A stretch of DNA of 32,000 bases, taken from positions 570,001 through 602,000 of the forward strand of contig OY969425.1 of assembly GCA_963699255.1 (NCBI GenBank). The letters run 5' to 3'. This stretch comes from an uncultured bacterium. GTDB taxonomy: Bacteria; Margulisbacteria; WOR-1; CAVSGV01. A program made the position numbers and the translations under genes. Below the pieces are notes generated by a model, which saw only the letters and a program-made list of their open reading frames with translations, had not been told where the DNA came from and did not search any database. Of the stretch, positions 22,101 to 29,756 are shown piece by piece. How positions within the stretch are numbered: the first letter of the stretch is position 1; every line of letters begins with the position of its first letter.

Positions 22101-24459
22101 CGCAAGTTAACGAAGAAGGCGCTGTCCCGGTCCATGTCCTGGTAGTTGTGCCTCCTCCCAATGCAGCCATGGTCCAGGGCCCCTGAGTGGAGTCTATCTG
22201 GAACCCTACCATCTTGATCGTGGAATTGGTCAGTGTGGTAGTGGCTGTACCGCTGAAGGAGGGAGTTGTGTTCTTTGTTAAATTATTAACAAAAGGATTG
22301 ATCGAGGTTGTTAAAGGAGAAGACACTGTCTCTTCGGATATCACGGTTACATTACCACTGTTATTATTGGCCACATAGATCTTATTGGTGTTGGGATTTA
22401 CGGCTACATAACCAGGATGAGTTCCGGTAGTTACCGTAGTGGTGGTATTAGTAGCTCCATCAATTACGGTTACATTACCACTGTTATTATTGGCCACATA
22501 GATCTTATTGGTGTTGGGATTTACGGCTACAGATAAAGGAGTGTTTCCGGCAGTTACTGTAGTGGTTGTATTAGTAGATCCATCGATCACGGTTACGTTA
22601 TTGCTGGTAGCCTGATTGACCACATAGATCTTATTGGTATTGGGGTTTACAGCTACATCACTAGGATAAGTTCCGGCAGTTACCGTAGTGATGACATTAT
22701 TAGTAGCCCCATCGATCACGGTTACATTATTACTCCCAAAATTAGCCACATAGATCGTGTTGGTCTTGGGGTTTACGGCTACTGCTCTAGGATTAGTTCC
22801 GGCAGTTACCGTAGTGATGACATTATTAGTAGCTCCATCGATCACGGTTACATTACCACTATCATTATTAGCCACATATATCTTATTGGTATTAGGGTTG
22901 ACGGCTACTGCATCAGGGGCCGTCCCGGTAGTTACCGTAGTGGTGACATTATTAGTAGCTCCATCAATTACGGTTACATTATTGCTAAGAGGATTAGCCA
23001 CATAGACCTTATTGGTATTGGGGTTTACGGCTAAAGCATTAGTATTACTTCCGACAGTTATTGTAGCGGTGGAATTATCAGCCCCATTGATCACGGTCAC
23101 ATTGGGACTACCTGTATTAGACACATAGACCTTATTGGTAATGGCGTTTACGGATACAGCCTGAGGATAAGTTCCGACAGCTACCGTAGTGATGACACCA
23201 TTAGTAGCTCCATTGATCACGGTTACATTATTAGTGCCATTATTTACCGCATAGATCTTGTTGGTATTGGGGTTTACGGCCACTGCATCAGGGCCAGATC
23301 CGACGGTTACCGTAGCGGTGGAATTTGCAGCCCCATCGATCACGGTCACATTATTAGTGCTCATATTGGCCACATAGATCTTATTGGTATCGGGGTTTAC
23401 AGCTAAAGATTGAGCGCCAGATCCCACAGTTATCGTAGCGGTGGAATTGTCAGCCCCATTGATCACGGTTACATTGTAATCCAAATAATTTGCCACATAG
23501 ATATTATTGGTGTTGGGGTTTACGGCTACGGCATACGGATAAGTTCCGACAGTTACCGTAGTGGTGACATTATTAGTGGTTCCATCGATCACAGATACAG
23601 TATTACTATTTTGATTGCCCACATAGACCTTATTGGTATTTGGGTTTACGGCTACAGGCCAAGGTTGAGACCCAACAGTTACTGTAGTAATGACACTATT
23701 ATTAGCTCCATTGATCACGGTTACAGAACCACTGGAATTATTGGTCACATAGATCTTATTGTTATTGGGGTTTACGGCTACTGCACGAGGGCCAGATCCG
23801 ACGGTTACCGTAGTGGTAACGGCATCAGTAGCCCCATTGATCACGGTTACGGTCCCGCCCCCCAAATTAGCCACATAGATAACATTGGTATGAGGGTTTA
23901 CGGCTACTGCATAAGGAATACTTCCGACAGTTATCGTAGTTATGACATTATTAGTAGCCCCATCGATCACGGTTACATTATTAGTATTTGCATTGGCTAC
24001 ATAGATCTTATTGGTATCGGGGTTTACGGCTACTGCAATAGGATATGTTCCGACAGCTACTTCAGTGGTGATATTAGTGGCTCCATCGATCACGGTTACA
24101 GCATTACTATTCTGATTAGCCACATAGATCTTATTGGTATTGGGGTTTACGGCTACTGCATCAGGATTAGCTCCGACCGTTACTTGAGTGGTGGTATTAG
24201 TAGCCCCATCGATCACGGTTACAGTGTTACCGCCACTATTTGCCACATAGATCTTATTAGTATTGGGGTTCATGGCTACAGCAATAGGTTGACTTCCAAC
24301 CGTTACCGTTGCGGTAACCGATTGAGTGTGCGCCAGGGATACAAGCATCAGTAAAAAGAAGCAGGAAATAAGAAGTACTAAGCTGGATTTTCTTTTTGAA
24401 TTTTGCACCAACTTAAAATAAAAAAAATCGATCCAAGAAGCCTGTGTCTTCCTAGACAT
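9871..24459 (-). CDS. Giant surface protein, fragment 1 (N-terminal 4862 aa): signal peptide, 16 YVTN blades, Ig-like domain, beta-helix modules M1-M7, 3 FN3 domains
   Basis: ATG at 24457-24459. N-terminus MSRKTQ..KRKSSLVLLISCFFLLMLVSLAHT. Ends ..NSGRYSWAPPTFQRPKPG* where paralogous spacers read ..SGRYTWTVPNISTTEA. The stop lies 9 codons after a 1-nt deficit at the plus-strand G5 run 9899-9903. Confidence 0.9.
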   Translation of the reverse strand: MSRKTQASWIDFFYFKLVQNSKRKSSLVLLISCFFLLMLVSLAHTQSVTATVTVGSQPIAVAMNPNTNKIYVANSGGNTVTVIDGATNTTTQVTVGANPDAVAVNPNTNKIYVANQNSNAVTVIDGATNITTEVAVGTYPIAVAVNPDTNKIYVANANTNNVTVIDGATNNVITTITVGSIPYAVAVNPHTNVIYVANLGGGTVTVINGATDAVTTTVTVGSGPRAVAVNPNNNKIYVTNNSSGSVTVINGANNSVITTVTVGSQPWPVAVNPNTNKVYVGNQNSNTVSVIDGTTNNVTTTVTVGTYPYAVAVNPNTNNIYVANYLDYNVTVINGADNSTATITVGSGAQSLAVNPDTNKIYVANMSTNNVTVIDGAANSTATVTVGSGPDAVAVNPNTNKIYAVNNGTNNVTVINGATNGVITTVAVGTYPQAVSVNAITNKVYVSNTGSPNVTVINGADNSTATITVGSNTNALAVNPNTNKVYVANPLSNNVTVIDGATNNVTTTVTTGTAPDAVAVNPNTNKIYVANNDSGNVTVIDGATNNVITTVTAGTNPRAVAVNPKTNTIYVANFGSNNVTVIDGATNNVITTVTAGTYPSDVAVNPNTNKIYVVNQATSNNVTVIDGSTNTTTTVTAGNTPLSVAVNPNTNKIYVANNNSGNVTVIDGATNTTTTVTTGTHPGYVAVNPNTNKIYVANNNSGNVTVISEETVSSPLTTSINPFVNNLTKNTTPSFSGTATTTLTNSTIKMVGFQIDSTQGPWTMAALGGGTTTRTWTGTAPSSLTCGYHTVYAVPLDDTAGTVTQLSDPVGATQAYQFLESNNMPLTYYVDSINGRDSNSGLTALDAFQTINTAESVVSTGDAILVKHGTYRLPATITLKNGVYLGGGYDDSWNPTNDPSLSIISGEGSVKCLSGTNLNSATIIECFTINNGYNSGSGAAGCGGGLVLTTSSPTIRNCAFTSNRANSGGGGVFATASSPVFQNCTFTSNKAIAGFGGGIYGNNSTPEVLNCTFESNSADATNGGGIASFYGSPTISNCAFASNSASTTGGGGIYIYEYAATANITIENCTFTSNTGASGGGIYSQVSNSTPTISNCLFIFNISTAGTGGYGGGGIYCIQSSPIISNCTLTENTAVNGGGLYSFSCTPTVKNSIIYGNSAVDIQGNNPTITYSCFPGIISGAGVIHADPLFVNASAGDAHLYNNSPCVDKGTGEASDLGLGFGQGYGTHSLAIYGDAGRVNMGYHYSGYTNSEQNVPDSTPPTITLYSPAAGNAWVTGTSRDITWEASDSDGLISPVTIYYSTNEGKVYTKIDTCDATLTSYPWTVPNLVTNEAKIKITMADAYYNLGTGESGEFSIRHPATWYVDAASPEGNSGMTPESPLNTINSAESAAIDGDEIHVRMGVYSLTAPHTGTITLEDGVYLRGGYDNGWNQIDDPSITIISGEGSVRCLYGDDLSSATTIENLTIQGGYVNEYEGDTGGKGAGAALFYSSPTITNCAFNNNRAVFGLGGGLYLEYSSPTILNCAFVSNYTYYQGGGIYMFRSFSTFSSCSFESNYAGDAGGGLCIDGSSPEVSNCTFILNRAGGGAGISNSRINSGDASFPFISNCAFISNSAEVFGGGMLNDNYCFPTISNCTFTSNSGGIEGGGMYNETFSSPTISNCSFESNIANYGGGMYSDSSSTPEVLNCDFISNSADSNGGGMFNSGVLASTVSNCAFTSNHADSGSGGGLWNYASSPTVENCAFTSNTAENGGGLENDNSSPDIENTTFILNSVSNGLSALGGGMANIESSLPVLNNCAFISNHSSGGGGGIYNGASTPEISNCTITSNSATSGGGIANYCSSPGIINSIIFGNSVDNISNGSSSPDIKYSCIEGGYLGDGNISDNPQFVAGLNNVHLYNTSPCVNYGTGEAFDLGLGSEEGYGTNQNTLYGDSLRVNMGYHYSGYAGPETDISDTTPPSVTVYTPSGSTVWSGGESRDITWDASDSGGLTDPVTIYYSTDEGATYNKIGTCEYTDKTYSWTVPNINTNEAMVKVTVPDNSYNLGSGASPAFTIGSVPLAPTNLSTINKTTTTAYSSWSVPAGSPAYYVISYGTNADNADNINTIMTTEADYSWSGLNPATQYYWKVLATNEVGAGPYSTIASFKTRSSSLTVWYVDAASPEGNSGTTPESPFNTIQSAESAAFGGDEIHVRQGIYSLADTGTVTLEDGVYLRGGYDNGWNQGTGTLTTIISGEGSVQCMYGIDLSPTTTIEGFTIQNGSATDGGGLYLTNSSPTVKNFFFVSNNADHGGGIYNTNYSSPAIFNCTFTSNSAFWGTYSDGGGGGIYNSNHSSPVIYNCIIYGNPGGSILNDSTSSSGVNYSCIQGGCSGIGNISTDPLFRNAPNDVHLYANSPCVNTGTGEAFDLGLGSEEGYGTHPLAQYGDSLRVNMGYHYSGYTGPESNITDHTAPAVSVEDPAGGVSWVVGSSKDVDWMASDSGGGSLINPITIYYSIDGGASYPYKIATKNTTDSDYMWTIPGTPTTDARIKITAVDSYYNLGSGASQVFNIVATPLAPTGLVTTNQTTNSADSSWTVPDGQPDTYIIRWGTDPTATNGGIITTTAANYSWSGLTPATTYYWKVSGSNEAGEGLPSAIASFKTWRETPAIWYVDAASPEGNSGDTPESPFRTINSAESAAYGNDQILVKQGTYDLTDPGTGTIILGNGVSLTGGYDDSWTQTGTWSATIVDGGNAVRCMYGSGLSSSTTIEYFTIMRGNSGYSYSGNGGGIYLTDSSPTITNCAFALDHAASYGGGIYYSGGAPIISDCIFTSNSADSDGGALFGDDSAAKILDCTFTSNNVDDYGGAIFNANSSGILIANCIFTSNSAGGVDIGGGGAICNAYSSLDIVNCIFTTNSAHFYGGGAIYNNHSSPHIYGCTFAADSAPRVGGAIWNVQGSHSTIVNSIVYGCYGGDIFNDPADSSLSATYCDIGTDPLYPGVGNINGNPYLVDPLTGDVHIASNSPCINAGTPDAYALTYNLTNGYGTNPDGVHGDSSNVNIGYHYYSAGYVLPEDDISDITPPAVTVYSPAGGERWIVGSTHDISWTAADENGLIYPITIYYATGETDVDTYKIDTVDISTTHYTWTVPFIASTWAEIKIVALDHSYNSGTGLSNAFTILSKPLTPEGLFTNGIAETTANGTWEVPVGLPTYYIVSYGIDPSASNMGTRITYEASYTWPVLSPNTKYYWKVLATNEAGSSAYSRPVSFETLSGPPGPLTFYVNANAPGPGPGIGTIDDPFKTINSAEAAVMTGTEEIHVMRGVYSLSTPGTGTISLESGTFLMACNYDWTPADDPSLTVISGDAAVQCLYGSGLSSATTIEGFTIQNGRSTYGGGFYLTNSSPTIINCAFTSNCGVGNGGAIENDYSSSPTISNCTFTSNEAPTGAGIFSERSPVILNCNFILNTTLTGVSKGNGGGIYQSSGTYPVISNCTFESNNAYSGGGIFDDNSFSIINNCTFTSNSADASGGGILHQDSSAATIENCAFTSNHAPYGGGIDISSSSPIISNCVFTLNSAETTGGGILNISSSPIISNCTITSNSAPYGAGAAGGICNNDSAPIISNSIIYGNSGGSFLDTSNSHSTVTYSCIDFYFVGVGNISDDPQFVNGPAGDVHLSRHNNSPCISTGTGQASDLGLGWEQHYGTNPDGIRGDTGIVDMGYHYYGYQQPDTTTLTWYVDSASPEGNSGMTPESPFKTINEAELVAVISDEIHVKHGVYSLTAPNTGTITLEDGVYLRGGYDNGWAQTLGPSTTIISGEGSVQCVYGLNLSSATTIEYFTIKKGYNSDAGGGLYLENSSPTISNCFFTLNSAEGNGGGGIYLTDSSPTILYCDFVSNEAGGGDGGGIYNAGGSSIISNCSFASNSGGGGGIFNSDVDASLIISNCSFTSNSGDGIFNNASNPTISNCVFISNSSPGSGGGIENNLSSPTISNCAFALNSASMGGGIWNNFQSNPIISDCTFTLNSASDHGAGIDNSSNCHPVISNSIIYGNLGASIIDESASSSTVTYSCIQGGWEGEGNISAEPLFVYGTNNVHLYNNSPCINTGIGNAFDLGLGSEEGYGTHPLAQYGDALKVNMGYHYSGYTGPETDINDIMPPTIEVISPAPGDTLTGGASYNITWEVKEDPANLIGPIMISYSTDEGATYNLIAADANVNHTSHSWTVPNINTAHARIKVAVADYPAYNLGTGESGVFSIGAGAPTARIWYVDAASPEGNSGMTPGSPFKDINSAESIAGYGDEIHVKKGTYYLYSGDGGPGTGPQTITLYDGIYLRGGYDDGWNQVNDPALTIISGEGNVPCLYGSGLTSAAIIDNFTIEDGYSSASNGSGYGYGSGLYLDSSSLTISNCDFTSNNADYGGGGIFISDYSAPEISNCNFDSNISNSGNGGGIFNDSSSVLTISNCAFTSNNAAEGGGIYNFLSASIESCAFTSNTAYYGGGIFNISTATIDSCTFTSNTAEGGDGGGVANYDYANSGISNCTFESNSAIYDSGGGLYCDVFSSMTVSNCSFKSNSAYNKGGGVYCAYSDASIESCDFTLNSANIEGGGLDLNDSYTHLNISNCTFNSNYAYYGGGIVINNASPTFENCALISNGANIAGGVYSEGTSFSPTFLNCTVTLNRSDGNVGGGLFNYGSSMTIFNSIIYWNSGQNLTNYSAPSAVNVTCSCVQAGDTVGTGFDGTGNISADPFFAHPELGDVHLYNNSPCVNSGEGQAEDWGLSYNEHYGTNPDGVHGDDGLVDMGYHYSGYSVSANLITDTTLPIVEVYSPANGDVWTGGTLYDITWEASDDQELIDNPISIYYSIDGGTTYNLIVAGITNSGRYSWAPPTFQRPKPG
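10135..11763 (-). other. Beta-helix module M7 (12 coils)
   Basis: N-cap WYVDAASPEGNSGMTPGSPFKDINSAE..GDEIHVKKG; 12 coils; C-cap ..ADPFFAHPELGDVHLYNNSPCVNSG..VDMGYHYSGY. Confidence 0.8.
11764..12114 (-). other. TWEASD-type Ig-like spacer 5
   Basis: DIMPPTIEVISPAPGDTLTGGASYNITWEVKEDPANLIGPIMISYSTDEG..HSWTVPNINTAHARIKVAVADYPAYNLGTGESGVFSI. Confidence 0.6.
12115..13344 (-). other. Beta-helix module M6 (8 coils)
   Basis: N-cap WYVDSASPEGNSGMTPESPFKTINEAE; 8 coils; C-cap ..AEPLFVYGTNNVHLYNNSPCINTG..VNMGYHYSGY. Confidence 0.8.
13365..14706 (-). other. Beta-helix module M5 (9 coils; divergent N-cap)
   Basis: N-cap FYVNANAPGPGPGIGTIDDPFKTINSAE; 9 coils; C-cap ..DDPQFVNGPAGDVHLSRHNNSPCISTG..VDMGYHYYGY. 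A ~7-aa linker joins it directly to M6, with no Ig spacer. Confidence 0.75.
14727..14995 (-). other. Fibronectin type III domain 3
   Basis: PLTPEGLFTNGIAETTANGTWEVPVGLPTYYIVSYGI..YTWPVLSPNTKYYWKVLATNEAGSSAYSRPVSFET. Confidence 0.8.
14996..15324 (-). other. TWEASD-type Ig-like spacer 4
   Basis: DITPPAVTVYSPAGGERWIVGSTHDISWTAADENGLIYPITIYYATGE..YTWTVPFIASTWAEIKIVALDHSYNSGTGLSNAFTI. Confidence 0.6.
15325..16533 (-). other. Beta-helix module M4 (7 coils)
   Basis: N-cap WYVDAASPEGNSGDTPESPFRTINSAE..NDQILVKQG; coils use GGAI/GGGI plus [ND]C.FTSN; C-cap ..GNPYLVDPLTGDVHIASNSPCINAG..VNIGYHYYSAGY. Confidence 0.75.
16553..16815 (-). other. Fibronectin type III domain 2
   Basis: PLAPTGLVTTNQTTNSADSSWTVPDGQPDTYIIRWGT..YSWSGLTPATTYYWKVSGSNEAGEGLPSAIASFKT. 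Confidence 0.8.
16816..17154 (-). other. TWEASD-type Ig-like spacer 3
   Basis: DHTAPAVSVEDPAGGVSWVVGSSKDVDWMASDSGGGSLINPITIYYSIDGGASY..YMWTIPGTPTTDARIKITAVDSYYNLGSGASQVFNI. Confidence 0.6.
17155..18012 (-). other. Beta-helix module M3 (3 coils, the shortest)
   Basis: N-cap WYVDAASPEGNSGTTPESPFNTIQSAE; only 3 coils (KNFFFVSN, FNCTFTSN, YNCIIYGN); C-cap ..TDPLFRNAPNDVHLYANSPCVNTG..VNMGYHYSGY. Confidence 0.75.
18030..18295 (-). other. Fibronectin type III domain 1
   Basis: PLAPTNLSTINKTTTTAYSSWSVPAGSPAYYVISYGT..YSWSGLNPATQYYWKVLATNEVGAGPYSTIASFKT, with the classic P.aPt.l / W / Y.v.Y / L.P.t.Y.. v.A.N..G.g FN3 pattern. Confidence 0.8.
18296..18624 (-). other. TWEASD-type Ig-like spacer 2
   Basis: DTTPPSVTVYTPSGSTVWSGGESRDITWDASDSGGLTDPVTIYYSTDEG..YSWTVPNINTNEAMVKVTVPDNSYNLGSGASPAFTI. 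Confidence 0.6.
18625..20385 (-). other. Beta-helix module M2 (14 coils)
   Basis: N-cap WYVDAASPEGNSGMTPESPLNTINSAE..GDEIHVRMG; 14 [NS]C.F..N coils; C-cap ..NPQFVAGLNNVHLYNTSPCVNYG..VNMGYHYSGY. Confidence 0.8.
20386..20715 (-). other. TWEASD Ig-like spacer 1
   Basis: DSTPPTITLYSPAAGNAWVTGTSRDITWEASDSDGLISPVTIYYSTNEG..YPWTVPNLVTNEAKIKITMADAYYNLGTGESGEFSI. Confidence 0.6.
20716..21984 (-). other. Beta-helix module M1 (8 coils)
   Basis: N-cap YYVDSINGRDSNSGLTALDAFQTINTAE; coils GGGIY..NCTFTSN; C-cap ADPLFVNASAGDAHLYNNSPCVDKG..VNMGYHYSGY. Confidence 0.8.
21985..22334 (-). other. Bacterial Ig-like domain linking the propeller region to the first beta-helix module
   Basis: ..TPSFSGTATTTLTNSTIKMVGFQIDSTQGPWTMA..TRTWTGTAPSSLTCGYHTVYAVPLDDTAGT.. 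matches the tP.fsGta ... G.htv.a.a.D.aG pattern typical of adhesin Ig-like domains. Confidence 0.5.
22335..24318 (-). repeat. 16 tandem YVTN-family beta-propeller blades (41 aa / 123-bp period)
   Basis: Sixteen hand-counted units of consensus VTVGs.P.AVAVNPNTNKIYVAN..sNNVTVIDGATN.V. On the plus strand the motif acatagatcttattggtattggggtttacggctac recurs every ~123 bp. Confidence 0.85.
24325..24459 (-). other. N-terminal signal peptide / signal anchor of the giant protein (about aa 1-45)
   Basis: Basic n-region (KRK), a hydrophobic run LVLLISCFFLLMLVSL, then A-H-T/QS before the first propeller blade. Confidence 0.7.
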
Positions 24460-24508: not shown

Positions 24509-24679
24509 AAGGAAGAGAGGAAATATTGGGAATACAGGGATACTGGAATATGGTTTAGGAAATGGGGAATTAGGATTCGATCGTTTTATCAAAAGATTTA
24601 TACTGCTCCCCATATCCCTTTTAACCATATCCCCAAACTTATTCCCCATATTCCGATATCCCCTTTTTCCGCTATTCCC
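24509..24679 (+). repeat. Intergenic palindromic GGRATAT-rich element, copy 1 (between the divergent giant gene and the PBP gene)
   Basis: The left arm carries GGAAATAT/GGGAATAC/GGGATAC/GGAATATGG units. The right arm carries their complements (CCATATCCC, ATATCCCC, CCATATTCC, GATATCCCC, TATTCCC). ggaatatgg at 24545-24553 pairs with ccatattcc at 24646-24654. The whole unit aligns to the reverse complement of 28195..28372. Confidence 0.7.
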
Positions 24680-24694
24680 TTGTAACTTCAACTG

Positions 24695-24703
24695 TGATAT
24701 AAT
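24695..24703 (+). promoter_or_regulatory. Candidate extended -10 promoter (TGaTATAAT) for the PBP/phosphohexomutase operon
   Basis: tgtgaTATAATctcctcctgtttttATG. The TATAAT ends 14 nt before the ATG at 24718, giving a very short leader with no SD. No convincing -35 element. Confidence 0.3.
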
Positions 24704-24717
24704 CTCCTCCTGTTTTT

Positions 24718-26763
24718 ATGCAAAGCACTGACCCGAAAAGAAAAAATATTTTCCAGAATATCGGCTCTTATCTGCCGCGGCAGAGAAGCAACAGGGTCAT
24801 ACTGTATTTCATCATCCTCGCCGCGATACTGAGCGGGCTTTTCCTTCAGATCCTGACGCAGCTGCCGAACGTTGAAACGATAAGCATATTCTCACCCTCC
24901 GAGACAACGGAGATATACGCTTCCGACGGGACCGTCCTTGCCAAGCTCCACAGGGAAGAGAACAGGTACGTGGTCCCGCTTGAAAAGATATCCCCGATAC
25001 TACAGAAGGCCGTCATATCCATAGAGGATGAGAGGTTCTTCCGACACAAAGGGGTTGACCTTCAGGGCGTGGTAAGGGCCGCCGTCACCAATATAGTGAA
25101 AAAAAAGGTTGAAGAGGGCGGAAGCACCATAACACAGCAGCTCGCGAGGAACCTGTTCCTTACCAAGAAAAAATCGATCACCAGAAAAATAGCGGAGATG
25201 GTCCTAGCCCTTCAGATAGAGAGAAGGTATACGAAATCGGAGATACTTGAGCTTTACCTTAACGAGATCTACTGGGGGCATAACGCTTACGGCATCGAGT
25301 CCGCTTCGCTCCTCTACTTTAACAAGCACGCTTCGGACCTTAACCTTTCCGAGGCCGCCGTTCTCGCCGGCATAATAGAGGGGCCCGAAAAATATTCCCC
25401 TTACAAGAACATGGAGGGGGCGAAAATGAGGCAGGCGGCCGTTCTTTCAAAGATGGTCGAGCTCGGATTCATCACGGAGGCGTCCGCGAACGCCGCGAAC
25501 ATCCAGCCTCTGAACCTTTCCACCGAAACGCCGAATAAATACAAGTTCGTCGCGCCGTATTTCACCACTTACGTGATCAACCAGTTAATAGACAAGTACG
25601 GTGAATTCACCGTTTATAACGGAGGCTTAAGGGTGTATACGACCCTTGACCTTAAAAAGCAGAGGGTTGCCGACGAGGTTGTAAAAAAGTTCCTTCAGGA
25701 AGAAGGCGAAACATACAATTTTTCCCAATCGGCCCTGGTGTCGCTTGACCCCAGGACAGGCTATATCCGGGCCATGGTCGGAGGAGCAAGCTTTGAAGCT
25801 TCCGAATTCAACCGGGCATGGCAGTCAAAAAGGCAGCCCGGATCCTCCTTTAAAGCTTATGTATATACCGCCGCCATGGAAATGGGCGTGTCCCCGGGTT
25901 TCATCCTTGAAGATTCACCCGTAACATACGAGGTGCCAGCGGACGAGTGGAACCCCGAGGGCAAGTGGGAGCCGAAGAATTTTGATGAAAAATACAGGGG
26001 CAAGGTAACTCTCCGAACGGCCTTTGAAAGATCGCTGAACATCCCTTCGGTAAAGCTGCTCGACAAGATCGGCGTGGGCAGCGCCATAGATGTCGCGCAA
26101 AGAATGGGGATAAAAAGCCCCCTTAAAAGAAGTCTGGGGCTTACGCTGGGCATATCGGAGGTCAGTTTGCTTGAGATGACATCGGCTTACGGCGTTTTCG
26201 CTAACGGCGGGATCAGGGTGGAGCCGACCGCTATAACAATGATAGAAGGCCCGCGCGGACAGCTGATCTACAAGCATACGATCGTGGAAAAAAGGGCGCT
26301 TAACAAGAACATAGCCGCGGTCATGGTGGACCTGATGCAGGGCGTTCTTCTTCGCGGAACGGGCGTAAGGGGGAATATCGACAGGCCCGCCGGCGCAAAA
26401 ACCGGGACTACCGAGGAATTCAAAGATGCCTGGTTCATCGGATATGTCCCTCAGCTGGTCACAGGCGTCTGGGTGGGCAATGACAATAACGAACCCATGG
26501 AAGGCGTAACGGAAGTGGCCGTAACGCCGAGAATGTGGAAGGCTTACATGTCGAACGTGCTGATGGACGAGCCCATAATAGATTTCCCGAAACCGGAAGG
26601 GCTTGTTGAAGAGAACATCTGCCTGGATTCCGGAAAGATCCCGAACCCTTCCTGCCCGGGAGACAGGATCGTAAAAGCGACCTTCTGGTGGAATGACAGG
26701 CCCACGGAAAAATGCACTTACCATCCGACCACCGAAGCCCTGCCCAGTTACATTACGAGGTAA
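24718..26763 (+). CDS. Class A penicillin-binding protein (PBP1A family: GT51 transglycosylase + transpeptidase)
   Basis: N-terminal TM helix VILYFIILAAILSGLFLQIL. GT51 motifs EDERFFRHKG, GGSTITQQ, RKIAEMVLA, KSEILELYLN. Transpeptidase motifs SSFK (SxxK), SLN (SxN), KTGTT (KTG). Confidence 0.95.
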   Translation: MQSTDPKRKNIFQNIGSYLPRQRSNRVILYFIILAAILSGLFLQILTQLPNVETISIFSPSETTEIYASDGTVLAKLHREENRYVVPLEKISPILQKAVISIEDERFFRHKGVDLQGVVRAAVTNIVKKKVEEGGSTITQQLARNLFLTKKKSITRKIAEMVLALQIERRYTKSEILELYLNEIYWGHNAYGIESASLLYFNKHASDLNLSEAAVLAGIIEGPEKYSPYKNMEGAKMRQAAVLSKMVELGFITEASANAANIQPLNLSTETPNKYKFVAPYFTTYVINQLIDKYGEFTVYNGGLRVYTTLDLKKQRVADEVVKKFLQEEGETYNFSQSALVSLDPRTGYIRAMVGGASFEASEFNRAWQSKRQPGSSFKAYVYTAAMEMGVSPGFILEDSPVTYEVPADEWNPEGKWEPKNFDEKYRGKVTLRTAFERSLNIPSVKLLDKIGVGSAIDVAQRMGIKSPLKRSLGLTLGISEVSLLEMTSAYGVFANGGIRVEPTAITMIEGPRGQLIYKHTIVEKRALNKNIAAVMVDLMQGVLLRGTGVRGNIDRPAGAKTGTTEEFKDAWFIGYVPQLVTGVWVGNDNNEPMEGVTEVAVTPRMWKAYMSNVLMDEPIIDFPKPEGLVEENICLDSGKIPNPSCPGDRIVKATFWWNDRPTEKCTYHPTTEALPSYITR

Positions 26764-26768
26764 AACGA

Positions 26769-28175
26769 ATGATAAAATTCGGCACCGACGGCTGGCGTGC
26801 TGTAATATCCGATGACTTCACTTTTGAGAACGTAAGGATCGTAGCGCAGGCATACTGCAACTATCTGAAAAAGAACGGTCTCCACGGTCAGGGCATAGTC
26901 ATAGGATATGACAACAGGTTCCAGTCCGAGGATTTTGCGTTCGAATCGGCAAAGGTCGCCGCATCCAATAATATAAAGGCTTATCTCACCGGATCGGTCC
27001 CCTCCCCTGTCATATCATTCACCGTTAAGAACAGGTCCCTCGGCGGGGGAATAATGATAACCGCTTCCCACAATCCCTCCCAGTGGAACGGCTTCAAGAT
27101 AAAATCACAGTTCGGATGCTCGGCTTCGGGGCAAACAACAAAAGATATCGAAGCCGAATTGTTGAACGTGAAAGCCCCGGTCATCACTTCGGATCATCCG
27201 GACCTTATCGTGAAGATCGATCCGAAAGAAGATTATTTTACGCACATCTCAAAGTTCGTAGATCTTGCAAAAATAAAGCAGGCCGGCATAAACATTGTGA
27301 TCGATCCCATGCACGGAAGCGCGGCCGGCTATGTGAAGGAGATCCTGGCCAGGAATGGCATCGGCTGCAAGGAAATAAACAGCGCGAGGGACCCGCTGTT
27401 CGGAGGTATAAATCCCGAACCGATCCCTCTGAACCTCGCGGAGCTTTCCGACCTGGTAAAAGACAGCGGCATAACGGATCCCGGTCTGTGGATCGGGCTG
27501 GCAACGGACGGCGACGGCGACAGGATAGGCGGGGTTGACGGGCAGGGTAACTTCCTTACTTCTCACGATATGTTCGTTCTGCTGCTGAAGCATCTGGTGG
27601 AGAACAAAAAACTCTCAGGCTCCGTGATCAAGACCTTCAACATAACGAACCTGGTAGGCATGCTCGCAAGCAAATACAAATTGACCGTCCATGAAACTCC
27701 CATAGGTTTTAAATATATTGCCGACCATATGCTGAAGGAAGATGTCCTGATAGGAGGCGAGGAATCGGGAGGGATCGGGATAAAAGGCCACGTTCCGGAA
27801 CGCGACGGCGTTCTTAATTCGCTATTACTGCTCGAATGCATCGCCTGTTACAAAAAAGACGCGAGAGCCATTTTGAACAGCGTGATGGATGAGTTCGGGT
27901 ACTTTTACTACGACAGGATAGATATCCATCTGACGGAGGAACAAAGGAACAGGGTCAGGTCAAAGCTGGGCGTTCTTAAACCGGGGACCTTTATCGGGGA
28001 AAAAGTAACGGACATGCAGGACCTGGACGGCATCAAGATGTTCCTTGAAGACAGGAGCTGGATATTGTTCAGGCTGTCGGGGACCGAACCCCTTGTCAGG
28101 ATATACTGCGAAGCCACTTCGATCGACAAGGTCAAAAGAATGCTGGGTGAAGGGGAGAAACTGCTGCTGGGCTGA
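26769..28175 (+). CDS. Alpha-D-phosphohexomutase (phosphoglucomutase/phosphomannomutase family)
   Basis: Active-site loop TASHNPSQWNGFK, metal loop ATDGDGDR, sugar loop GGEESGG, phosphate loop RLSGTEP. The start is moved from the ORF-track 26712 to ATG 26769 (MIKFGTDGWRAV, the conserved family N-terminus). GAGG at 26757-26760 sits 8 nt upstream, and the start is 5 nt after the PBP stop. Confidence 0.9.
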   Translation: MIKFGTDGWRAVISDDFTFENVRIVAQAYCNYLKKNGLHGQGIVIGYDNRFQSEDFAFESAKVAASNNIKAYLTGSVPSPVISFTVKNRSLGGGIMITASHNPSQWNGFKIKSQFGCSASGQTTKDIEAELLNVKAPVITSDHPDLIVKIDPKEDYFTHISKFVDLAKIKQAGINIVIDPMHGSAAGYVKEILARNGIGCKEINSARDPLFGGINPEPIPLNLAELSDLVKDSGITDPGLWIGLATDGDGDRIGGVDGQGNFLTSHDMFVLLLKHLVENKKLSGSVIKTFNITNLVGMLASKYKLTVHETPIGFKYIADHMLKEDVLIGGEESGGIGIKGHVPERDGVLNSLLLLECIACYKKDARAILNSVMDEFGYFYYDRIDIHLTEEQRNRVRSKLGVLKPGTFIGEKVTDMQDLDGIKMFLEDRSWILFRLSGTEPLVRIYCEATSIDKVKRMLGEGEKLLLG

Positions 28176-28194
28176 TCACTCAATTGCGGAACCA

Positions 28195-28372
28195 AAGGAA
28201 AAACGGGATATAGGAATATGGGAATATAGTTTGGGGATAATGGAAAAAAGGAATACAGGAAAAGTCCTCAGACAAAAAATCGAGATCTAATTCCATCGAG
28301 TTCTAATTCCCGTATCCCTCATTTCCTAAACCATATCCCTATATCCCCATATTCCCACATTCCAATGATTTC
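28195..28372 (-). repeat. Intergenic palindromic GGRATAT-rich element, copy 2 (inverted relative to copy 1; fills the convergent gap)
   Basis: The reverse complement aligns with copy 1. An identical 17-mer atatggtttaggaaatg links 24548-24564 to rc 28320-28336. An identical 11-mer atccccaaact links 24629-24639 to rc 28228-28238. The arms are about 86-88% identical by eye; the centre differs by an indel/duplication (aattagaactcgatgg aattagatctcgat). Confidence 0.7.
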
Positions 28373-28373
28373 C

Positions 28374-29756
28374 TTACTGCCCCAGTTTCTGCTGTATCTC
28401 TTTCTCAAATTTCTCTTTTTTATCTATCCTCGCCAGCTCAGCCCGCTCTTTTGCCGCGTCGGCCTTGGCTCCGATGTTATCGAATATCTTCTTCAACTCC
28501 GTGTGCATATCCTTGTCATCGCCGGCAATGAGCGACGCCTTCCTGTAGCTCTGGAGCGCCAGATCGTTCTTTTTCAGGCCGTGATAGGCGTCTCCCACGG
28601 CGATCAAAAGGTTCGCGTCGGCGCCGCTGAAATCACCGGCTTTCCCGTATTCCAGAAGGGCGAATTCAGCGTTCCCGGCTCCCTTGTACGCGTCGCCCAG
28701 GAACAGGTGAACATACGGGTTTGACGGATCATCCATGCTCGCCTGATTATAAGCAGCGATCGCTTCATTTATTTTCCCCATAAGGTACAAAGAATTCGCC
28801 TTTATGAGCGGTTCGTTTATCTCAACTTTCTCCTTCTGGCTCAGCTGATACATCCATTTTTTCAGCGCCTGGTCCTGCTTCTCTGCAAGCACTTCCTCGT
28901 TCAGGTCTTTGCCCTTTTCTTTGATCTTTCTGAGCCGCGTATCTTCCACCTGGATGATATGGTAGCCGTAAGAGGTTCTAACGATACCGCTTACCTCTCC
29001 GGGTTTAAGAGAGAACGCCGCTTTTTCAAATTCAGGGACCATCGCTCCGGTCGTAAAGAACCCCAGATCCCCGCCTTTTTTTGCGCTCACCGTATCATCT
29101 GAATATTTTGCAGCCAGGGCAGCAAAACTCTCGCCCTTTTTGATCCTGGAAAGCAGCTCTTCGGCCTTTGCCCTCGCCTCAAGATCGCCTTTTTGGTCCG
29201 CGCTCTTTGGCATGATCAGGATATGCCTTGCTTTTACTTCCCTCAGATCATCGGCCGTTATCGTTACTTCTGATCTTACCTTGTTCATCATTTTTGCGAC
29301 AAGTATCTCTTCCTTTATGTTGTTCCTGAAATCAGAATAATCCTGCCCTATGTTCTTTAACGCGCTTTTCAGAGTGTCCCTGTTCGGGATCTTATTCGCC
29401 TGCATTATCTGATCCACAGCCTGATCTACCTCTCCCCCTCCCACCCTGCAATTCTTTTTCGCGTCATCAAGCATTATCGTGAAATCTATGACCTGCTGCA
29501 GCGCCATGGTCTGGTACAGCATCACATCCTGGGGCTTTTTCCGCCCTTTATCTTTGGACATGATCTTTTGTATCGTTTGTTCCAGTCTTTTGTGGTCGAT
29601 CTCTTTCCCGTTGATCGTGGCTATGGATCCCTTTTTAGGGCTCTCCTGCACGCCCTTTATGCCCCTGTAACTGAGACCGTAAAACATCGTCGCCGCAAAA
29701 AGTACGGCGACAATTATCATTATCGTCTTCATTTTTCTCCTTAAATATGAAAGCAT
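28374..29756 (-). CDS. Membrane-anchored parvulin-type peptidyl-prolyl isomerase (PpiD/SurA/PrsA-like) with a C-terminal TPR-like region
   Basis: N-terminal TM IMIIVAVLFAATMFYGL and a SurA_N-like region. Parvulin core ARHILI..GGDLGFFTTGAMVPEFEKAAFSLKPGEVSGIVRTSYGYHII. C-terminal helical repeats AIAAYNQA.., FALLEYGKA.., LALQSYRKA... SD AGGAGAG (rc of 29763-29769) lies 6 nt upstream of the ATG. Confidence 0.85.
   Translation of the reverse strand: MLSYLRRKMKTIMIIVAVLFAATMFYGLSYRGIKGVQESPKKGSIATINGKEIDHKRLEQTIQKIMSKDKGRKKPQDVMLYQTMALQQVIDFTIMLDDAKKNCRVGGGEVDQAVDQIMQANKIPNRDTLKSALKNIGQDYSDFRNNIKEEILVAKMMNKVRSEVTITADDLREVKARHILIMPKSADQKGDLEARAKAEELLSRIKKGESFAALAAKYSDDTVSAKKGGDLGFFTTGAMVPEFEKAAFSLKPGEVSGIVRTSYGYHIIQVEDTRLRKIKEKGKDLNEEVLAEKQDQALKKWMYQLSQKEKVEINEPLIKANSLYLMGKINEAIAAYNQASMDDPSNPYVHLFLGDAYKGAGNAEFALLEYGKAGDFSGADANLLIAVGDAYHGLKKNDLALQSYRKASLIAGDDKDMHTELKKIFDNIGAKADAAKERAELARIDKKEKFEKEIQQKLGQ

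Follow-up and report, generated by a model that had tools for sequence, protein, structure and literature searches.

A twelve-copy family of non-coding foldback elements with phased GGRATAYR words in the genome of a WOR-1 bacterium

In a 32,000-nt stretch of the genome of an uncultured WOR-1 bacterium (Margulisbacteria; contig OY969425.1, positions 570,001 to 602,000; hereafter, the window), two inverted copies of a repeat bracket a pair of genes encoding a class A penicillin-binding protein (PBP) and a phosphohexomutase (PGM)-family protein. The repeat was found to belong to a family of 12 non-coding foldback elements. The probable explanation, accepted with modest confidence, is that of a lineage-specific insertion element whose arms are read as words by a putative trans-acting factor. 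Both between copies and between orthologues, the sequence comparisons showed that what is conserved is the set of phased GG.A words together with the central word, and not the base pairing of the arms.

The genome is a single contig of 1.77 Mb (47.5% G+C, 95% complete), and its nearest named relatives are Margulisiibacteriota, Saganbacteria and WOR-1 metagenome-assembled genomes. The same set of 12 elements was obtained with blastn, with a profile of the arm and with a covariance model (Table 1). A first-pass annotation, made from the window alone, had suggested a dispersed repeat similar to repetitive extragenic palindromes (REPs) or the miniature transposable elements with inverted repeats known as MITEs; this is supported by the genome-wide search, in which the two window copies did not stand alone. 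A family signature composed of the invariant columns, GGRA-N4-GGRA-N4-GGRA-N4-GTNTRG, matched 23 of the 24 arms in the genome, compared with 0 matches for the reversed control pattern, and had 0 matches in 64 other genomes of the same class. According to the arm profile, the arms were always paired in inverted orientation, in the order purine-rich arm, loop and pyrimidine-rich arm (12 of 12), and no solo or widely spaced arms were present in the genome. Arrays of two words outside the 12 elements numbered 56 versus 55 in the control, without enrichment; since stray arrays occur at the control frequency, the motif is confined to complete elements. That the first-pass annotation did not recognize the motif as a described repeat family agrees with the Rfam search, which gave no match to any described RNA family and returned only eukaryotic miRNA-precursor models far below the threshold. 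No phage match to the element was found. In other families of the class, the covariance model detected the same architecture composed of other G-rich or purine-rich words. In a metagenome scan, all but one of 120 stretches were chance single-arm matches, and exact-protein look-ups for strain variants yielded one 2-kb contig, which ended before the junction. It was also observed that, in an unrelated metagenome contig (Ga0066652_100064827, L131:170-262), TGGAATAC/TGGAATAT words form two arrays in direct rather than inverted orientation; both have GGTTTGG at the center and resemble the family arm weakly (24 and 18 bits).

The elements are about 135–171 nt long, with arms of approximately 60 nt. 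Each arm consists of approximately four 8-nt words, followed by a distinct central GTTTRG and then by three to four looser words, and the word logo was GGRATAYR (G (0.97), G (0.95), R, A (0.97), T/A, A, Y, R). The copies were 60–78% identical to one another, with invariant word cores: GG.A at 8-nt phase and the central word were the same across copies, and the inner words and the loop varied in length and sequence. When the information content of the entire arm was examined for periodicity by a Fourier test, no significance was reached, because the central word brings a shift of phase; the word logo is nonetheless clear. GTTTAG on one arm and GTTTGG on the other were found in 8 of the 11 scorable copies, and for five copies (594 and 1299 kb versus 335, 598 and 1502 kb), full-length alignment clearly favored one relative orientation. 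Since the two arms differ and five copies show this preference, the element is not a true palindrome and has an orientation. The copies aligned in register over their full length, loops included; all of them go back to a single ancestral element, in which the order of the words was fixed and the two arms differed slightly.

The two window copies lie where the first-pass annotation had placed them, and their gene contexts, divergent starts for copy 1 and convergent ends for copy 2, were confirmed (Table 1). Copy 2 is homologous to copy 1 as its reverse complement, with a local alignment score of 99 compared with 19.3 ± 3.0 for dinucleotide shuffles (z = 26.5) and an alignment spanning nearly the whole length, whereas in direct orientation the same type of shuffles gave only z = 7.4. 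The overall identity of the copies was 71.6% over 162 nt (blastn). The arm identity of 86–88% originally estimated by eye was somewhat too high, as 80% over 56 nt and 84% over 44 nt were measured; among the exact cores reported as shared, the 17-mer ATATGGTTTAGGAAATG was recovered, whereas the supposed 11-mer is actually a 12-mer. Copy 2 is longer than copy 1 by one 8-nt unit and had 77.6% identity over 165 nt (blastn) with the minus strand of genome positions 1299021–1299177. Folding of both strands showed that each copy is a long imperfect hairpin, as proposed (−50.9 and −61.7 kcal/mol, z = −1.8 and −4.2 for the two strands of copy 1; −53.1 and −78.4 kcal/mol, z = −3.9 and −7.5 for those of copy 2). 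There is no ORF inside the element, and a consensus scan found neither a terminator nor a sigma-70 promoter inside either window copy.

The description of the repeat as structured did not hold in the sense of a hairpin under selection. The complementarity of arms belonging to the same copy was 0.61, compared with 0.64 between arms of different copies, and this comparison was repeated after the copies had been oriented. Native hairpins were less stable than chimeric ones (−52.7 versus −56.9 kcal/mol for one strand, −56.2 versus −61.7 kcal/mol for the other); in the permutation analysis, shuffled arm pairings were as stable or more stable in 98% and 99.8% of shuffles, which places the native pairs at the weak end. 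The RNAalifold covariation term was +0.88, i.e., positive and unfavorable, and only the invariant GG:CC pairs held. Constraint in place was measured on one orthologous pair, namely, the 197 kb copy and its orthologue in a metagenome contig (L120) that is 82% identical and collinear over 2.7 kb. The outer arms of this pair matched at 41 of 47 and 39 of 44 positions (87–89%), compared with 67.5% identity in the two flanking genes at third codon positions (p = 0.002 and 0.001, respectively, by a binomial test). The inner arms and the loop matched at 38 of 69 positions, and the changes in the left arm were uncompensated in the right arm.

All 12 copies are intergenic; the adjacent genes are co-directional for eight of them, convergent for three and divergent for one, copy 1. 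A stop codon is close to the start of the element in 11 of the 12 copies (element start at −11 to +19 nt relative to the stop; median approximately 5 nt after the stop), and the next start codon is farther away, at a more variable distance. Genes encoding a ROK kinase, HycI, PurA, QueC, Lpd-like and radical SAM enzymes, as well as LeuC-like, MiaB-like, MgtE, SppA and RsmH proteins, flank the elements, and they have no common function. Since these neighbors are unrelated housekeeping genes, a shared local function of the copies is excluded, which had been anticipated from the differing contexts of the two window copies. As regards annotation of the window, the element is nothing out of the ordinary: it is a non-coding repeat and not a regulator specific to the PBP and PGM genes.

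Comparison with relatives revealed both occupied and empty sites. The order PBP, PGM and then SurA and FtsX on the opposite strand was kept in three relatives with 75–87% protein identity. In L012 and L013, the copy-2 site has no element and the two stop codons directly adjoin each other; in L014 there is a different 95-bp insert with two short GC-rich hairpins. These hairpins (L014:7460-7565) were seen to be perfect, with GGAACC...GGTTCC stems, and the insert is flanked on both sides by the palindrome TGATCA, formed by the abutting stop codons; the TGATCA pair may represent the target duplication of a different, REP-like element. At the 1174 kb junction between Lpd-like and radical-SAM genes (genome positions 1174536/1174694), the related genomes G005 and G002 have an ATGA stop/start overlap, G003 has a 144-bp palindrome of CCAAT-type words, and G001 has a 151-bp GC-rich hairpin insert, a REP-like doublet; counting the GGRATAYR element, three unrelated hairpin inserts thus occupy this junction in three genera. 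The 1213 kb junction is empty in G005 and carries a palindrome of CTCGAAA words in G004, and in the window genome the element overlaps the last codons of a gene for a HypC–radical-SAM fusion and provides its stop (genome 1213187–1213198). The empty site in G005 (L107) was observed to end in ATAGGAATATCGTAG; because it already holds a GGAATAT word, insertion at a site resembling the element's own word is hinted at. Among the three junctions checked, other hairpin elements were found at four of nine relatives' junctions, compared with approximately 13% of the genome's junctions that carry word arrays, and therefore some junctions look like hot spots. Meanwhile, G005 has a strong family match (105 bits) where copy 1 lies in the window genome, directly beside the PBP gene's conserved promoter TGTGATATAAT; the central word of this orthologous copy, GGCTGGG/CCCAGCC, is shifted on both arms, and the element is not notably close to copy 1. 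In sum, the elements are insertions capable of persisting, and their word cores remain unchanged at the sites where they persist.

Word arrays of other vocabularies are frequent in the same genome. Tandem Repeats Finder detected 326 arrays with a period of 6–10 nt, mostly heptamers, at 230 loci. In 28 adjacent inverted pairs of such arrays, the purine-rich arm came first in 25 (p = 3e-5), and A exceeded T in the first arm in 27; the same polarity characterizes all 12 GGRATAYR copies, and the reverse arrangement is almost absent from the genome. Moreover, 8 of the 10 genes of the PF05635 family (four-helix-bundle proteins of the 23S rRNA intervening sequence (IVS) type) lie between inverted word arms whose vocabulary differs from cassette to cassette. 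The GGRATAYR family resembles these cassette arms and the heptamer palindromes in having a phased purine-rich word arm, a loop and the complement, at the same kind of junction and with the same polarity; it differs in its 8-nt words, its own vocabulary and the fact that it encloses no gene in this genome or in five genomes of the same family. An origin from the cassettes was rejected, as GGRATAYR arms were found in 0 of the 10 PF05635 cassettes here and in 0 of 24 in G001–G005 (best match 3 bits, E = 0.65); the cassette arm near 1000.27 kb, which looks similar by eye, likewise scored only 3 bits. One PF05635 cassette was noted approximately 370 bp from the 676 kb copy (c676k).

The heptamer repeats of cyanobacteria known as short tandemly repeated repetitive (STRR) sequences are comparable to these word palindromes. 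The family is an addition to such little understood but already noticed bacterial word-palindrome repeats, and not a new genetic system. Hairpin repeats of short words at gene junctions, such as STRR, the GGGAATC pairs of Xanthomonas and the word palindromes of Margulisbacteria, have been seen for decades without explanation, and the present family adds three testable facts: it is the words and not their pairing that are under selection or conversion between copies, the same gene junctions have been colonized independently by unrelated hairpin elements in sister genera, and the purine-rich arm is always the 5′ one on both strands. Together, these facts narrow the range of mechanisms and favor a sequence reader for which a single strand or nascent RNA would be the substrate.

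In Xanthomonas, GGGAATC repeats are over-represented between aligned ORFs and within 50 bp of stop codons, with four units preferred, and form 70–75 pairs per genome that are always convergent, the G-rich plus strand being followed by the G-rich minus strand (Rehm et al. 2015, PMC4692102). The GGRATAYR family shares with the GGGNATC repeats of Xanthomonas and Nostoc the short G-rich, AT-tailed units, the approximately four units per array and the convergent pairs near stops (PMC4692102). In contrast to them, its unit is 8 nt long and imperfect, the words differ from position to position in a way that is kept in all copies, a separate GTTTRG word stands at the center, the length is nearly fixed, and a canonical G-quadruplex (G4) motif was found in only 3 of 22 arms. 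There are, furthermore, only 12 copies, and since these are homologous end to end, the family represents a dispersed element and not locally expanded simple repeats. MITEs such as Correia/NEMIS, ERIC and RUP (Delihas 2011, PMC3184786) are similar in size (approximately 150 nt), in being non-coding and intergenic with long imperfect inverted repeats, and in their dispersed copies present or absent between relatives, as at the three junctions with empty sites described above. Unlike MITEs, the family has no target-site duplication recognizable at the diverged sites compared, no sharp termini and no cognate transposase-bearing element (only Y1 transposases were searched), its arms are internally periodic word arrays, and its old copies keep invariant word cores. 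REPs are GC-rich palindromes of 20–40 bp tagged with GTAG or CGTC that flank a RAYT gene (Bertels and Rainey 2011, PMC3116915; Di Nocera et al. 2013, PMC3733652). Like REPs, bacterial interspersed mosaic elements (BIMEs) and REPINs, which are inverted doublets, the family consists of lineage-specific extragenic palindromes at gene junctions, often after stops (PMC3116915, PMC3733652); unlike REPs, its element is four times longer and AT/purine-rich, its consensus lacks a GTAG or CGTC tag, and the Y1 gene of the genome is not flanked by it.

According to the explanation considered probable, the GGRATAYR element would be a non-autonomous insertion element, and its arms would be read as word arrays by a putative lineage-specific trans-acting factor, which could be a mobilizing or maintaining enzyme or a host protein. 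Because of its location within transcription units or at their ends, the element would be co-transcribed, and the transcript would fold into a long, imperfect hairpin in which the 5′ arm is made up of purines and the 3′ arm of pyrimidines. In the mRNA, such a hairpin could serve as punctuation by terminating transcription in part, by offering a site to RNase III or by blocking 3′ exonucleases; this role would be secondary and hypothetical. Several observations weigh against the insertion-element explanation. In three comparisons of filled and empty sites, no clear direct repeat indicative of a target-site duplication was found, the sites being too diverged (75–87% amino acid identity in the flanking genes) for exact boundaries, and the ends of the element fade out instead of being sharp. 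No autonomous partner enclosed by family arms was present in the genome or among 24 cassettes of related genomes; a single Y1 transposase (genome 1290815–1291165) has no flanking family arms, Y1 being the only transposase family searched. The arms of orthologous copies are conserved in place, which is not expected of a purely selfish, decaying insertion and points to a role at the level of the host or to conversion between copies, and this conservation was measured on the single orthologous pair described above (n = 1).

Retention by the host mainly as an RNA hairpin, i.e., a bidirectional terminator, RNase III site or 3′ exonuclease barrier such as enterobacterial REP/BIME, was regarded as unlikely, although it fits the position of the element immediately after stop codons, the three copies between convergent genes, the ability of both strands to fold and the conservation of the arms in place. 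The order of the arms, purine/A-rich first and pyrimidine/T-rich second, is also the polarity of bidirectional terminators. However, compensatory changes were absent, and the native hairpins were weaker than the chimeras; the transcribed strand was the more stable in only three of seven co-directional copies; a run of at least four T was present at only 7 of 24 arm ends (read by eye from the alignments); and the terminator scan of the two window copies was negative. In addition, one copy split a gene pair with an ATGA overlap, where a terminator would be harmful, and the same junctions do without the element in relatives. Selection at the RNA level on one strand was rejected as well: besides the stability counts just given, the GTTTGG-type arm came first in four of five copies, and no trend was seen.

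A more doubtful proposal concerns the words themselves: the phased words would be the recognition code of a putative lineage-specific reader co-evolving with them, and all elements of the class would belong to a single undescribed mobile or maintenance system, in which the vocabulary of the arms is programmable. Besides the GGRATAYR family, this system would comprise the heptamer families and the arms around the IVS-type genes for four-helix-bundle proteins. It was advanced because the words are uniform within the genome and the central word is shifted on both arms in a sister genus. If it is true, the strict precedence of the purine arm would be a consequence of action on single-stranded DNA or on nascent RNA.

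A protein-binding array, named as an alternative in the first-pass annotation, fits the conservation at the level of the motif. In the form in which it was considered, an oligomerizing protein (nucleoid-associated, partition-like or of the ribbon-helix-helix type) would bind to sites arrayed symmetrically on double-stranded DNA, and the hairpin potential would be a by-product of the two convergent arrays; this possibility was given still less credence. Proteins of these types are known to read tandem 7–8-bp repeats, and the invariance of GG.A at an 8-nt phase with the intervening bases free and pairing not required, the concerted change of the central word on both arms in G005 and the conservation of the outer arms in place would all be accounted for. 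Nevertheless, arrays of one or two words are not enriched elsewhere in the genome (the 56 versus 55 reported above), unlike those of a regulon; the sites number only 12, their neighbors have no functional theme, relatives lack sites at the same junctions, and no candidate protein was identified.

A G-quadruplex or i-motif repeat acting via four-stranded DNA or RNA, in the manner of the GGGNATC repeats, is improbable. The unit GGGAATAT is similar to GGGAATC, approximately four words stand on either side of the center, the inverted pairs are convergent and close to stop codons as in those repeats, and all 22 arms tested had at least four GG runs with loops of at most 7 nt (G4Hunter maxima of 0.9–1.8), but four G3 tracts were present in only 3 of the 22 arms, the invariant run is GG and not GGG, the invariant A and the central GTTTRG are left unexplained, and the majority of the genome's word palindromes of this class lack a high G content.

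The idea of the first-pass annotation that the inverted copies, 3.5 kb apart, serve as recombination substrates inverting the PBP/PGM block (24.7–28.2 kb) is very improbable, as the order and orientation of PBP, PGM and the opposite-strand SurA and FtsX are identical in three relatives that have neither copy, the remaining 10 copies are scattered singly, and the longest exact match is 17 nt at approximately 72% identity, which is below the usual need of RecA-dependent recombination. A sponge for CsrA/Rsm binding GGA was rejected: the units of the element resemble the CsrA site ACARGGAUG, and PF02599 had no match in this single-contig, 95%-complete genome, whereas control genomes were positive.

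Table 1. Features of the two window copies, the genes around them and the related loci of the genome. Coordinates are positions in the 32,000-nt window unless given in kb of, or marked as positions in, the whole genome.
Feature	Position	Strand	Remark
Copy 1	24509..24679		Model match 24518-24672; lies where the giant gene and the PBP gene start divergently
Copy 1, purine-rich arm, GTTTAG type (phased GGRA words and central GTTTAG)	24525..24574	+	Arm profile 37.2 bits
Copy 1, purine-rich arm, signature match	24529-24558	+	
Copy 1, variable inner part and loop	24575..24608		From alignment
Copy 1, complementary arm, GTTTGG type read on the minus strand	24609..24670	-	Arm profile 36.3 bits
Copy 1, complementary arm, signature match	24633-24662	-	
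Copy 2, orientation opposite to copy 1	28195..28372		Model match 28195-28365; fills the gap between the convergent PGM-family and SurA-like stop codons
Copy 2, purine-rich arm, GTTTGG type	28197..28259	+	Arm profile 43.4 bits
Copy 2, purine-rich arm, signature match	28205-28234	+	
Copy 2, variable inner part and loop	28260..28303		Loop homologous to the 1299 kb copy
Copy 2, complementary arm, GTTTAG type read on the minus strand	28304..28363	-	Arm profile 41.3 bits
Copy 2, complementary arm, signature match	28326-28355	-	
12 genomic copies	197, 335, 463, 594 (copy 1), 598 (copy 2), 676, 1129, 1174, 1213, 1299, 1502, 1638 kb		
Giant gene, 4,862 codons	9871-24459	-	Starts beside copy 1
Extended -10 promoter TGTGATATAAT of the PBP gene	24693..24703	+	Conserved in relatives
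Class A PBP gene	24718-26763	+	Start beside copy 1
Phosphohexomutase (PGM)-family gene	26712-28175	+	Stop beside copy 2
Bracketed PBP and phosphohexomutase pair	24718..28175	+	Order and orientation kept in relatives
SurA/PpiD-like gene	28374-29756	-	Stop beside copy 2
PF05635 cassettes with word arms	genome 716334-716787, 182431-182900, 495228-495702, 465359-465860, 1541573-1542109, 999805-1000305, 1000736-1001215, 676849-677358		

The predicted extended −10 promoter of the PBP gene lies just beyond the right edge of copy 1, 14 nt 5′ of the ATG (24718), and is not part of the repeat sequence. It is kept upstream of the PBP orthologue in four relatives (L012, L013, L014 and L060), and a Shine-Dalgarno sequence is not evident before the PBP ATG. 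The short distance between the −10 box and the ATG, together with the lack of an evident Shine-Dalgarno sequence, suggests that the PBP mRNA may be leaderless or near-leaderless. The giant gene is not the neighbor of the PBP gene in any of these four relatives, and in G005 the element lies next to the orthologue of a gene located 42 kb away in the window genome; thus, copy 1 stands at a synteny breakpoint. It should be added that the 5′ part of the giant gene contains tandem direct repeats of 123 bp (window positions 24000–24306; 83–87% identical), which indicate a repeated module of 41 residues in the N-terminal region of its protein.

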